A DNA stretch of 64,000 nucleotides from Eledone cirrhosa (lineage: Eukaryota), in assembly GCA_964016885.1 (NCBI GenBank), contig OZ024742.1, forward strand, positions 115,940,001-116,004,000, in the 5' to 3' direction. The stretch's first letter is position 1; every line of letters starts with the position of its first letter. Shown piece after piece: positions 5,770-62,685 of this stretch. The notes under the pieces were generated by a model, which was given only the letters and a program-made list of their open reading frames with translations, did no database searches and had not been told where the DNA came from. The position numbers were made by a program, and so were the translations under genes.

Positions 5770-6480
5770 GAATGAAATAATTAAGAACCTATCTTCAAAT
5801 GTTATTTTATTTTAATTTATTGCTCAATACACAGAGAGACAGAGACATACACAATCACACACACTCAAACACACGCACACACACACACGCATGTATATAT
5901 ATATATATATATATATATATATATATATATATATATATATATATATATATATATATATACATGTATATATATATTTGTCAATACTCATCTTTTTCCATTT
6001 CTCCGAGGGTTCTTAGCTCCACTATCAGGCTAAATAATTTATTTAATTTCTTTAGTCAAAATACGGCGATAGCTTACATTTCTAATAATTAGAAACCCCA
6101 CTCGCTGTTTCGAAAATATTCTTACACACACACACACACACACACACACACATATATATATATATATATATATATATATATATATATAAAAACAAATAAC
6201 GAAACGAAATTAAATTTCGTTTCCTTTGTAACTCACTTTTGTATGACTGACGCTTAAACAATTAAGTTAAAAATGTACATCCACATATGTATACTGAAAT
6301 ACTAGTATGCATATGAATACACACACGTATACATATGTAGATGTACCAAGTTTTTCACTGGTCACTTTACTGTGAGTGTCCAGCTATTCTGTATGTAAAC
6401 ACACAGACAAATCAGTTTTTAGAGTCATACTGGTTTTTGAGGAAACACCTTTCCTCTATTCTCCAGAAAGCCAGACAAGG

Positions 6481-6525
6481 AATATTGAACTAGTTTCGTT
6501 GTTGTTACAACTCATCAGCAATATT
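6481..6525 (-). ncRNA. Minimal type I HHR, intact core (family C)
   Basis: aatattg-CTGATGA-gttgt aaca acaac-GAAAC TA GTT-caatatt; 7-bp helix I, 5-bp helix II. Confidence 0.92.
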
Positions 6526-7110
6526 TACCTATCTTCCGGCCTTTCTGGAGAATCGTAAAAGCACATATCGTTATATGCTTTTTCTATGAAAATTAGTAGT
6601 GGGCAGACTAATTTGCATAGAGTGTGAGTACGTATCGGTTCAACGGAGACGATAAAAACAAATAACGAAACGAAATTAAATTTCGTTTCGTTTGTAACTC
6701 ACTTTTGTATGACTGACGCTTAAACAATTAAGTTAAAAATGTACATCCACATATGTATACTGAAATACTAGTATGCATATGAATACACACACGTATACAT
6801 ATGTAGATGTACCAAGTTTTTCACTAGTCACTTTACTGTGAGTGTCCAGCTATTCATATGCATACTAGTATTTCAGTATACATATGTGGATGTACATTTT
6901 TAACTTAATTGTTTAAGCGTCAGTCATACAAAAGTGAGTTACAAACGAAACGAAATTTAATTTCGTTTCGTTATTTGTTTTTATCGTCTCCGTAGAACCG
7001 GTACGTACTCACACTCTATGCAAATGAGTCTGCCCACTACTAATTTTCATAGAAAAAGCATATAACGATATGTGCTTTTACGATTCTCCAGAAAGGCCGG
7101 AAGATAGGTA

Positions 7111-7155
7111 AGTATTGCTGATGAGTTGTAACAACAACGAAACTAGTTCAATATT
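7111..7155 (+). ncRNA. Minimal type I HHR, intact core (family C, inverted arm)
   Basis: agtattg-CTGATGA-gttgtaacaacaac-GAAACTAGTT-caatatt. Confidence 0.92.
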
Positions 7156-7640
7156 CCTTGTCTGGCTTGCTGGAGAATAGAGGAAAGGTGTTTCCTCAAA
7201 AACCAGTATGACTCTAAAAACCGGTTTGTCTGTGTGTTTACATACAGAATAGCTGGACACTCACAGTAAAGTGACCAGTGAAAAACTTGGTACATCTACA
7301 TATCTATACGTGTGTGTATTCATATGCATACTAGTATTTCAGTATACATATGCGGATGTACATTTTTAACTTAATTATATATATATATATATATATATAT
7401 ATATATATATATATATATATATATATATATATATGTATACGTACATACATATATGTATACAGACGTACAATAGTATGTATATATATATATATATACATAC
7501 ATGCACATATATATATATGTACGTATGGATTCACCGAACATTTATTATAATGCTCGGTGTGTTTTTAAACAAATATCCCGAATTAAGCCGTACTGTGTCT
7601 AGCAACCATCGTTGCTCATTTGTTCAACACTGACAAAGGA

Positions 7641-7683
7641 ACGCTGTACTAGTTTCAAGCATATTAGCTATCGTCAGCAACGT
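7641..7683 (-). ncRNA. Minimal type I HHR (family B, unit 1)
   Basis: acgttg-CTGACGA-t-agc taatat gct-t-GAAAC TA GTA-cagcgt. Confidence 0.88.
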
Positions 7684-8073
7684 ATACCTTCCTACCAGAT
7701 GGTTGAACGTGTGAAAATATTTACTTTCATTATGCATATTAACGGCTGAGCAGCCTAATTTGCATACCGAGTGAGTTAATCGGCAGGGGTACCGAAAACG
7801 ATAAACGGAAAAAATGAAACGAAATTTCATTTCTCACTCTTAGTAAGGCTGTTACTTAAATATAAGTATGTATACGTACATACAAATATGTATACAGATG
7901 TACAGTAGTATGTATATATCTATATATACATACATGCACACATATATATATGTACGTATGGATTCACCGAATATTTATTATAATGCTCGGTGTGTTTGTA
8001 AACAAACATCCCGAATTAAGCCGTACAGTGTCTAGCAACCATTGTTGCTCATTTGTTCTACACTTACACAGGA

Positions 8074-8116
8074 ACGCTGTACTAGTTTCAAGCATATTAG
8101 CGATCGTCAGCAACGT
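8074..8116 (-). ncRNA. Minimal type I HHR (family B, unit 2)
   Basis: Same motif 433 bp from unit 1, one helix II change. Confidence 0.82.
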
Positions 8117-8485
8117 ATACCTTCCTGCCAGATGGTTGAACGTGTGAAAGTATTTACTTTCATTATGCATATTAACGGCAGGAGCAGCCTAATTTGCATA
8201 TCGAGTGAGTTAATCGGTCGGGGTACCGAAAACGATAAACGGAAAACATGAAACGAAATTTCATTTCTCACTCTTAGTACGGCTGTTACTTAAATATAAG
8301 TATGTATACGTACATACATATATGTATACAGACGTACAGTAGTATGTATATATATATATATATGTACGTATGGATTTTCCGAACATTTATTATAATGCGC
8401 GGTGTGTTTGTAAACAAACGTCCCGAAATAAGTCGTAGAGTGTCTAGCAACCACCGTTGCTCATTTGTTCAACACTGACAAAGGA

Positions 8486-59662: not shown

Positions 59663-59881
59663 TTACTATATATTATTAATCGGCTCAGTATTTTTATACT
59701 TGGAGCTTAATAGTTACAGGGTTCCAATTGAGTTTTGGAACCAACTCTAATTTTCATATATATTTCTGCTCCCTCGCAAGTTGAGCTTATTAAGTTGTGC
59801 GTGTTGGACTGTTATTTCTATTCAATACGCGGTTACCACGTGTGAACGTTGGCAAATAGTGTTTGTTGCATTTAATCAGAT

Positions 59882-59961
59882 TCTCTCGCTGATGATGCCC
59901 AGGATTATCTGTTACAAACACACTCAGGGAGAAACAGATTAGGGATAATCTGTCCGAGAGA
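59882..59961 (+). ncRNA. Full type I hammerhead ribozyme with stable helix III and GUC site
   Basis: tctctcg-CTGATGA-t(g)ccc...ggga-GAA ACAGATTA ggga TAATCTGT C-cgagaga. Confidence 0.9.
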
Positions 59962-60839
59962 TATAATGGTTATTGAGGCGGTTTGTATAATAATATATTT
60001 TTATTTTATCATTCTGTCTGCTTCTTGGTTAAATATTTCAAACAAATGTGGTTTTTCAACCCTTGTAATTTTAGACACACGGTTTACTGTGTTTCTTACT
60101 ATATATTATATATATATATATATATATATATATATATATATATATATACACACAAACACATATATATATACATGCATACACACACCCATATATACATATA
60201 TATATATATATATATACATATATATATATATATATATATATAAATACTTAGGTTAATAGGAGTTAGGTATTGTATACCCGTGTCGCATTAAGGTATTGGC
60301 AGCATAATAATTAGCTCTATGCTTTGGAGCAGAGCCGTATATATGAAAAAGAACACAAGATCGTCTGCTGTTGTAGACGCTCTTGTGTTCTTTTTCATAT
60401 ATATATATATGTATATGTACATACACACATTCGCTTACACATATACACACATATAAAAACAATAAAATAAATGTACAATGCATCCATACACATTCACGTA
60501 ACATATACATACATATACACACACACACACACATTACACATATATACATATATATATATATATAAGCGTATACATACATACACCCACACGTATATATATA
60601 TATATATATATATATATATATATATATATATATCATATATACATATACACACACTCATACATATACATACGCTCACGTCTACGCGTATACACATATAAAA
60701 ACAATAAAATAAATTTACGATATATTAAAATACATTAAATTATGCATATAACGTCACATAGTGATATATAAAAAAAGAGGCGAGAAAGGAGAAGGTACAT
60801 GTATTCGTGTGATATACCAAACATGGGGAGTATGAGGTG

Positions 60840-61200
60840 TACACTCTTAGCCTGGGCTTCCCGGAGGATTCCATGCGGCCAATGTGCCCCTTCTCTGGTC
60901 TCTGAAGGTCATGATAATTTCAGATTTCAGGTTGACCGCGTCATCCTTCACTCCAACTAACTCCACGGCCTCTTATAGGCATAATCTGCACTTTCTACTT
61001 CCAGCCGAGTATGAATTTGCGTGCCGAAAGATACACAAGAGAAGGTCTTTCATGGCCCACATCAAGTCCGTTAACCTAGTGGAGTGCCTCTTGCTTCGAT
61101 CCTTGAAGAAGTTCGTGTGGTTATACATCCGCGATTTAAAGGTCATGGATGTTGCGCCGATGTGGGTGCGTTTTATATTTTGGGTGCTGACCACACATGT
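60840..61200 (-). mobile_element. PLE GIY-YIG fragment
   Basis: [38 protein letters not shown]. Confidence 0.75.
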
Positions 61201-61628
61201 GTATATATATATATATATATATAAATATGTATATGTATGTATGTATATATATATATATATATATATATATATATATATATATATATATATATATATATAT
61301 ATATACACATATATTTATTAAAATAACAGATTAAAGTTTAAGCAAAGATTTATTATTATTACTATATATACATATATATGTATGATATGTGTGTATATAT
61401 ATATATATATATATATATATATATATATATATATATATATATACATATGTATATGTATATATATATATATATATATATATATATATATATATATATATAT
61501 ATATATATATATATATATATATATATATATATATATGTATGTATGTATATGTATATATGTGTATGCGTCAACATGAGTGGACCTGTTATTTGTAGCTAAA
61601 TACATTTTTTCCAATATTTCTCATTCTT

Positions 61629-61664
61629 TCTTCTGATGAAGGTTTAGCGTCTGAAACGTTAAGA
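61629..61664 (+). ncRNA. Minimal HHR in a short PLE-like 3' end
   Basis: tctt-CTGATGA-agg tttagcg tct-GAAAC GTT-aaga. Confidence 0.75.
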
Positions 61665-62356
61665 CCCTCTCCCTACTATATCAAGCATTAACCTAATATA
61701 TTCCTTCCATATACTGTACCGAGTGTGGTGTTATTTCTGGTTACCTTTTACCTAAAACTCTGATTAAATATATATATATATAAATTTAATATCGTTGAAA
61801 TTTTGTAAACTTTGCTTCACGACATCTACATACTGATTATTTTGAGTTCTTCATACGGCTTGGTGGGTTCATCTCTGTACTCTGCTCCTTGTTGTATTAA
61901 TGTCTTCATTAATATATTTAGTTGACCTCTTAATCTTGTCTAATATCCGTATTGCAATGGAAAGACAATACTTAGTAACTTCGTTGAAAAATGTATTACC
62001 CGTATTACCCGTATTACCCGTATTTTGTTTAATTTCATTGTTTTCACTATTTGTATTAATTTGACTCTCCCTCCAATGAATTATATCGTTGAAATTTTGT
62101 AAACTTTGCTTGACGACATCTTCTACATACGGTTTACATTGAGTTCTTCATACGTTTTTGACCCTACCATTAATTGATGGATTTATCTGTGTATATATAT
62201 ATATATATATGTATATATTTATTTATTTAGGTTTGTTGATTCACCACTGGATAGAACTCGTTGTAATATTATGGAGAGCACTCAACGTAATGCAACTCAC
62301 CCGTCTTCGTTTGTGTAGTTGGTGGTGCGATGGTGCGAGTACGGAGTTAATTATTA

Positions 62357-62685
62357 TAAAATAACCGGAGGCTGGACTGGTGTAAATCCTTGAAAGGTTT
62401 ATTATACTATGATCATTTCAATGACCGGGTTCAGTATGAATCCGGTGACATCATCAGGTATTCAATGTATAACTCGAGGGCGGCCGACTGAAGTAGAAGC
62501 TGCAAATAGTAGGTCCTCATCTTGTCTCTGATGGTCAGCCCTATGGATTTTATCTGTTATATTCCTTTGTTATACTTTGAATACCTGATGATGTCACCGG
62601 ATTTATACTGAACCCGGTCATTGAGATGATCATAGTATAATAAACCTTTCAAAGATTTACATCAGTCCAGCCTCGAGTTATTTTA
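62357..62685. mobile_element. Fold-back element; HHRs at 62404-62461 (minus, intact) and 62581-62638 (plus, GAGA variant)
   Basis: atac-CTGATGA-tgtcaccgg//ccggtcatt-GAAAT GATC ATA-gtat; ~117-bp arms, ~95-bp spacer. Confidence 0.85.

Follow-up and report, generated by a model that had tools for sequence, protein, structure and literature searches.

Head-to-head, one-tailed insertions of Penelope-like elements and hammerhead retrozymes in (TA)n tracts of Eledone cirrhosa: twin priming as the probable mode of integration

Penelope-like elements (PLEs) that carry a GIY-YIG endonuclease (EN+ PLEs) are known to insert with inverted, head-to-head pseudo-long terminal repeats (pLTRs), one of which bears a tail, and with target duplications of 8–10 bp, an arrangement that has been explained by self-priming on an antisense template (PMC3846280). 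A further description mentions the inverted copy and a bias towards (TA)n, adds that the tail is often confined to one end, and calls the mechanism undefined (PMC8557442). We analysed inverted-repeat insertions of this kind in a 64,000-nt stretch of contig OZ024742.1 of Eledone cirrhosa (the window), which lies within a 3.0-Gb genome, and in related copies elsewhere in that genome. The insertions are real and their architecture is largely known for PLEs, given that the head-to-head structure, the one-ended tail, and (TA)n targeting have been published; the new part is a quantified rule for the pairing of the two ends and the extension of that rule to hammerhead retrozymes. As in the published EN+ PLEs (PMC3846280, PMC8557442), the elements combine a reverse transcriptase (RT) with a C-terminal GIY-YIG domain, carry a hammerhead in the 3′ repeat, and form partial tandems, and they share a 5′-truncated inverted copy, a one-ended tail, (TA)n bias, ~10-bp target duplications, and Asn-rich inserts. 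Whereas the published inverted copy occurs "often" and the tail is optional, nearly every scorable insertion here is two-armed, with complementary ends and the same sequence variant in both arms, and the tails measure 39–83 nt (confirmed at other loci; possibly longer in families H and J) as against 30–40 nt.

Three other systems bear comparison. The anole PLE PAc (Poseidon, Anolis) cuts and extends both strands of AT-rich DNA in vitro and initiates at two internal RNA sites that delimit the tail, with a dimer predicted, all of which resembles what we describe; the available portions of that study contain no link to inverted insertions or one-of-each pairing, and no strand preference of the start site (PMC11167929). 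Non-LTR retrozymes are head-to-tail arrays of ORF-less units (ORF, open reading frame), with a type I hammerhead, a palindromic helix III, and structured RNA, probably mobilised by PLEs (PMC7229834; bioRxiv 10.64898/2026.07.22.740005); the tandem units seen here (311–466 bp) share these traits, whereas the head-to-head double arrays with PLE tails found here did not appear in the available portions of either source. The link to PLEs here rests on the insertion signature and not on co-occurrence or phylogeny. Finally, twin priming is described for LINE-1 (PMC10760644; bioRxiv 10.1101/2024.12.14.628481) and likewise involves a second priming event on the opposite target strand, joining of the cDNAs through microhomology, and inversion of the 5′ part (PMC10760644). 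In LINE-1, twin priming is one outcome among several, while here it appears to be the rule, with a second site fixed 40–85 nt from the first and with arms that usually overlap. The second priming site of LINE-1 is variable and its arms do not overlap, a pattern from which the present insertions depart with their fixed second site and mostly overlapping arms. Our literature search found neither inverted retrozyme arrays nor a rule that pairs one end of each type within the same variant, though the 2004–2006 PLE papers and supplements may hold such a model.

The central observation is that each family ends at one of two fixed 3′ sites, a distal tail site and an upstream site, spaced by ~70 (A), 55 (B), 40 (C), 58 (E), 83 (F), and 39 nt (P), and that the two arms of an insertion nearly always use one of each. 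The original prediction had treated both ends of a break in (TA)n as equivalent primers, which was not borne out in view of these different fixed start sites. At 57 distinct family A loci (29 from a score-ranked search and 28 taken in chromosome order, tiny arms being scored by eye), 48 carried one of each end type, one had two tail-less ends, five had a single arm, and three were interrupted; the 28 loci in chromosome order gave 24 mixed, one two-tail-less, two one-armed, and one interrupted. A search for the termini only, that is, for both end types joined to (TA)n along C1 0–144 Mb, with loci partly those of the family A survey, returned 35 mixed pairs, two true tail-less pairs, and one apparent tailed pair, the last of which proved to be two insertions. 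Other families behaved similarly, with mixed ends in 27/28 pairs of family E, 10/11 of family C (25 loci), and 5/6 of family P, and all 21 partner arms found for 40 tailed copies of family F were tail-less. The tailed arm may be left or right, longer or shorter, and seemingly single copies usually conceal a second arm of 7–50 nt of the complementary type. Two insertions within the 10 kb to the right of the window, found once the pairing rule was set, conform to it.

Arm polarity was equally regular. The predicted orientation, with RNA 3′ ends facing outward, held in the window, where minus-left/plus-right order was seen in 12/12 intervals with definable sense (of 14), sense being read from hammerhead cores, ORFs, or homology to the family. 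It held genome-wide as well, since in the first 100 pattern matches listed for each family (98 for P), neighbours on opposite strands and no more than 6 kb apart were head-to-head in 15/15 cases for family A, 23/23 for C, 26/28 for E, and 25/25 for P, whose sense was taken from its ORF; both family E exceptions fall between separate insertions.

The two arms also share their sequence variant. Family A units diverge by 0.57% within an arm, by 0.73% between the two arms, and by 2.2% between loci. At 18 subfamily-diagnostic sites, arm discordance was 1.0% compared to 30% when permuted, with fully concordant arms at 35/40 family A loci (null mean 4.6), and at 8/41 loci both arms had private variants unseen at other sampled loci. 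Family E arms differ by 1.8% compared to 4.6% between loci (15/18 below the median). In 8/17 mixed family E pairs, the longer arm is tail-less and non-tandem and the shorter arm is tailed; neither is a plain copy of the other, because each contains sequence missing from the other. Arms without any overlap occur at loci L041 and L209 and at window position 53739. A later central deletion could mimic single such cases, though hardly half of them.

Targeting of (TA)n, the second main feature of the original prediction, was confirmed at 36/39 two-armed family A loci, which have (TA)n at both ends. Two of the remaining three (L056 and L067) are flanked by direct repeats of 12–13 bp, including end microhomology, and the third (L032) lies in a tandem repeat; an automated search for target site duplications had a false rate of 19% in TA-rich controls, and hence only L056 and L067 were counted. 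In the window, the left end of the insertion predicted at 39141 adjoins another repeat rather than (TA)n. Among 36 measured central junctions (6/42 were left unmeasured), 13 showed an overlap of 0–5 nt (mean 1.9 compared to 0.75 by chance), seven had one extra base, and 16 had larger apparent inserts, for which exact measurement is distorted by single-nucleotide polymorphisms (SNPs). In families C and F, junctions concentrate at hotspots of self-complementary sequence, and these represent repeated independent events rather than one propagated fold-back because the junction sequence varies between loci.

Taken together with the in vitro work, these features are probably best accounted for by PLE integration through twin priming on one template, and the proposal that two reverse transcriptions start from opposite ends and are joined centrally is thereby upheld as the best model. 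In such a model, the PLE protein, probably as a dimer, would cut both strands of (TA)n or TA-rich DNA at staggered positions, and each exposed 3′ end would pair over 2–4 nt with a short AU-rich stretch of the bound RNA and prime reverse transcription, one DNA end starting at the distal tail site and the other 40–85 nt upstream. Both ends would copy the same template, most simply one RNA (for retrozymes, a multimer or circle), and the two cDNAs would stop independently and be joined end to end, blunt or by microhomology, with self-complementary sequence favoured. The product would be two arms lying head-to-head, their 3′ ends outermost, one with the tail and one without it. The model draws on the observed polarity, end pairing, shared variant, flanks, and junction features, and on the literature for both-strand cutting and for the two start sites in vitro. 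What we infer beyond these is that the two reactions are simultaneous and share a single RNA molecule, together with the dimer, the circularity of templates, and the route of repair.

Several observations sit less comfortably with twin priming on a single template. Single arms occur at the five family A loci mentioned above, and both arms end at the same type of site at two family A loci (L048 and L207) and at one each of C (L085), P (L151), and E (L148). At L037 and L007, arms or units are of different variants, and concordant arms would be equally expected if a single dominant master supplied two RNAs or if gene conversion had acted. Family B polarity was mixed, with six head-to-head and two tail-to-tail neighbours among the matches listed and read by eye, one of the latter being two adjacent insertions. 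By eye, there was no excess of tailed arms that stop at the second start site, of the sort that collision on one RNA might produce. Long arrays carry recurring SNP blocks typical of later tandem expansion, the in vitro start site of PAc does not differ between strands (PMC11167929), and no empty site came to light: left-flank DNA, used to look for one or for a duplicated site, matched only another repeat.

If twin priming used two separate RNAs of one active master, and each subunit of an asymmetric dimer were held to its own start site, this would account for the polarity, the pairing, and most of the concordance, and would fit the discordant loci L037 and L007 and the missing collision signature. 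Nevertheless, several subfamilies coexist, as the 18 diagnostic sites attest, and yet 35/40 loci are fully concordant; variants shared by both arms and seen at no other sampled locus occur at 8/41 loci; and the loci examined contained no recognisable pair of arms drawn from different families. We consider two RNAs an unlikely source. We regard as more doubtful still the self-priming reading of the PLE literature (PMC3846280, PMC8557442), in which snap-back priming, with an antisense template or the first cDNA as substrate, yields a hairpin whose ends are trimmed by the endonuclease at two sites. It predicts the same variant in both arms and junction hotspots at palindromes, as seen in families C and F, and the same-type loci L048 and L151, whose flanks are mirrored for 60–80 nt, suggest that DNA-templated copying may be a minority route there. 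However, copying one arm cannot give unique sequence in each arm unless trimming is added, a single extra base is present at 7/36 junctions, some centres are perfect palindromes without a loop, and internal initiation at two sites on sense RNA has been demonstrated in vitro (PMC11167929).

Repeated independent insertion into one (TA)n tract, followed by homogenisation through recombination or gene conversion, would be in keeping with the common clustering of insertions in single tracts (in the window and at L136, L206, and L208), but such neighbours meet tail-to-tail with (TA)n between them, whereas true pairs have no central (TA)n (39136–39792 has an internal microsatellite) and show fixed polarity and complementary ends, which leaves this explanation very improbable. 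A fold-back artefact of library preparation or assembly is barely credible. The palindrome at 31792–32109 is 100% perfect, and the public runs examined showed no strand-switch joint; on the other hand, arms differ by 0.7% to >10% and end at different fixed sites, one arm at L031 holds a nested insertion, target duplications are present, and contigs of one public run (possibly from the source sample) join (TA)n to the tail-less sites at 6255 and 6260. A DNA fold-back transposon or miniature inverted-repeat transposable element, defined by symmetric terminal inverted repeats and a constant centre, was rejected given the asymmetric ends and the centres that differ between loci.

The identity of the families supports their assignment to PLEs and associated elements. 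RT and C-terminal GIY-YIG domains in a single ORF were found in families D, E, C, and P, alongside pLTRs in partial tandem or inverted arrangement and a one-ended tail, and the 3′ repeat contains a complete hammerhead in C and E and hammerhead cores in D; none was recognised in family P. By inspection, families E and C have a CX4CxxC linker and a CCHH motif in the endonuclease, in line with the published Neptune/Nematis motifs (a CX2-5CxxC linker and endonuclease CCHH; PMC8557442). Family E gave a weak RVT_1 match and Atlas neighbours with RT/GIY-YIG/HTH_animal (score 0.96), and its protein has 251 homologues, the best named being an Octopus vulgaris protein with 70% identity. A frame of 919 a.a. 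is present at locus L131, with endonuclease motifs recognised by direct reading; Pfam GIY-YIG matched only the frame at 2620–3510, neither D nor E, and a PDB search returned no match below E 0.1. An Asn-rich low-complexity segment lies in the N-terminal part of the D and E ORFs (43219–43860; L131, L135) and resembles the N-rich inserts of rotifer Penelopes.

In a scan that took structure into account, the window yielded 11 complete type I hammerheads compared to a mean of 0.02 over 100 shuffles, with no intact hammerhead in 32180–32643 or 55711–55959. Rfam gave two HH9 matches of 37.7 and 35.9 bits, short of the gathering score of 52, its other matches being mostly false miRNA-family hits from hairpins and microsatellites. 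PLE origin and the presence of hammerheads, both proposed originally, are thus borne out by the RT/GIY-YIG frames, the 3′-repeat hammerheads, and the shuffle-controlled scan, while the proposal of many small ribozyme parasites stands in part. Families A and B consist of tandem units without an ORF, of 466 and 433 bp respectively, each unit bearing one type I hammerhead, and are, judging from their sequence, putative non-LTR retrozymes, whereas C and P are truncated PLE ends and not separate parasites, because both run into PLE ORFs at other loci. No ORF was found ≤1.5 kb upstream of families F or G (14 loci each), both of which continue upstream.

The arms at the 57 family A loci are built of units only, and the unit folds far better than shuffles (z −12.3). 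Family A 5′ truncations seem clustered at or just downstream of the predicted hammerhead cleavage site (unit positions 165–183, extended helix I). Among public runs, five, from three organisms, contain half or more of the family A unit (6186–6651) and many others a smaller part of it; no RNA run was listed among them, and three runs examined more closely all contain the unit. At G000:C1:5738094-5752747 (L210, L211), an array of 31 family A units, in which SNP blocks recur, appears to be a retrozyme insertion growing into a satellite; rolling-circle copying cannot be claimed from array length, given that SNP blocks point to later expansion. Approximately 3.5 kb to the right of the window (L150:3453-5848), we noted a new 311-bp hammerhead retrozyme in (TA)n, comprising six identical tailed minus units and a tail-less plus arm. 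The octamer ATGCAAAT occurs in units of retrozymes A and B (window positions 6611, 7018, 7758, 8192, 8580, and 53816). It may be an snRNA-type promoter element, in parallel with newt satellite 2, for which our literature listing gave no confirmation.

Within the window, inverted arms make up 17% of the sequence, as against 0% of the 10 kb on its left and 30% of the 10 kb on its right. Self-alignment recovered 13 of the 14 inverted-repeat insertions originally proposed, the other (53739–54150) having opposite arms without overlap. The arms are asymmetric, and several elements reach beyond the proposed coordinates via a one-sided tail; boundaries moved outward for the insertion at 10897 (to 11324) and that at 29756 (to about 30025), and probably also to 55635 and about 62210. 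Two palindromes at 31755–32109 and 46962–47330 lie beyond the earlier list. Identity between arms, from arm alignments, is 93–98% in the youngest insertions and ~77–87% in the oldest.

The leftmost insertion belongs to family A (6186–7376), with a minus arm (6186–6855) running to the tail site, a plus arm (6851–7376) ending 74 nt upstream of it, hammerheads at 6518 (−) and 7118 (+), and (TA)n at both flanks. It is followed by a family B insertion (7434–8973) with a tail-less minus arm of 2.6 tandem units and a tailed plus arm (8548–8973), and by an older PLE of family E (9312–10143) in which a short tail-less minus arm with an internal jump faces a tailed plus arm (hammerhead core at 9893). 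Family F forms a near-symmetric palindrome (10887–11324; hammerheads at 10992 (−) and 11136 (+)) with an ~83-nt tail on the right arm only, and a second family B insertion (12258–12858) pairs a tailed minus arm with a tail-less plus arm (hammerhead cores at 12561 (−) and 12723 (+)). Family G is represented by a palindrome (29755–30025) with an ~65-nt tail on the right and minimal hammerheads, as defined previously (PMC4209133), at 29843 (−) and 29868 (+). The family C insertion (30081–30503), which represents the 3′ terminus of an autonomous PLE of Neptune type, has an ~40-nt tail on the left arm only, and the family P insertion (31755–32109), the 3′ end of a 3.45-kb autonomous PLE, consists of a 318-bp perfect palindrome (31792–32109) and a 39-nt tail on the left. 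A family H inverted insertion (32180–32643) has a one-sided extension of ~115 nt.

Further right, D-related PLE ends lie head-to-head around a microsatellite centre (39136–39792), the left end being cut by a neighbouring repeat and the right arm tail-less. The large family D insertion (40163–46266) has a tail-less minus arm (40163–43858), bearing a frameshifted RT/GIY-YIG ORF with an Asn-rich N-terminal part, and a tailed plus arm (43859–46266), with hammerhead cores at 40397 (−) and 45966 (+). Between (TA)n tracts lies a palindrome with 86% identical arms (46962–47330). The family E element (47545–50265) comprises a minus arm with a 58-nt tail, a hammerhead at 47799 (−), and a 705-a.a. RT/GIY-YIG frame (48007–50124), joined to a tail-less plus arm of 123 bp. 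The family B insertion with non-overlapping arms (53739–54150) consists of a 44-nt minus tail piece and a 375-nt tail-less plus arm, family I (55635–55963) is an inverted insertion with an ~70-nt extension on the left, and family J (62210–62690) is one with a hammerhead core at 62457 (−), a mutated mirror copy, and a probable left extension.

Additional elements in the window include truncated PLEs at 50370–52162 and 25530–26921 (minus), with the CxCX5C linker typical of the Hydra clade and hammerhead cores at 50492 and 25651, respectively, and similar GIY-YIG remnants at 24244–24490 and 60900–61210. A 33-nt tail-less family E arm (50339–50371) adjoins the 3′ end of the Hydra-type element, with no partner arm visible. 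A frameshifted Neptune-type PLE at 2620–4504 (minus) carries RT and GIY-YIG with a CX4CxxC linker, and no mirror arm was noticed. A degenerate LINE at 35452–38571 (plus), which we take to be CR1-like, contains an apurinic/apyrimidinic (AP)-endonuclease-like frame and an RT (RVT_1, E 5.7e-21) and is not inverted.

The pairing rule ties the two start sites known in vitro to inverted insertions and makes the mechanism question testable. Given that their insertion signature is identical to that of PLEs, retrozymes A and B would be mobilised by PLE machinery, and the signature provides direct genomic evidence for PLE enzymes moving hammerhead retrozymes. Because exact matches of single 31–33-mers number in the thousands genome-wide (A 4,135; B 4,481; C 5,772; E 21,563; these include tandem units and both arms), the process would be a large source of palindromes. 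Octopus bimaculoides has an exceptional fraction of near-perfect double-stranded RNA (dsRNA) loci, to which no repeat is assigned, and Penelope is heavily edited in lizard (PMC5625713); a link between octopus dsRNA or editing and these elements is speculation. Tentatively, and with rather less than even confidence, we propose that twin priming may be the normal mode of PLE integration, in which an asymmetric RT dimer uses two fixed sites on one RNA (a circle for retrozymes), such that nearly every insertion would be born palindromic, leaving near-perfect inverted repeats by the thousands or tens of thousands in this genome and perhaps constituting a main source of the unusually high dsRNA potential and hyper-editing reported for octopus.

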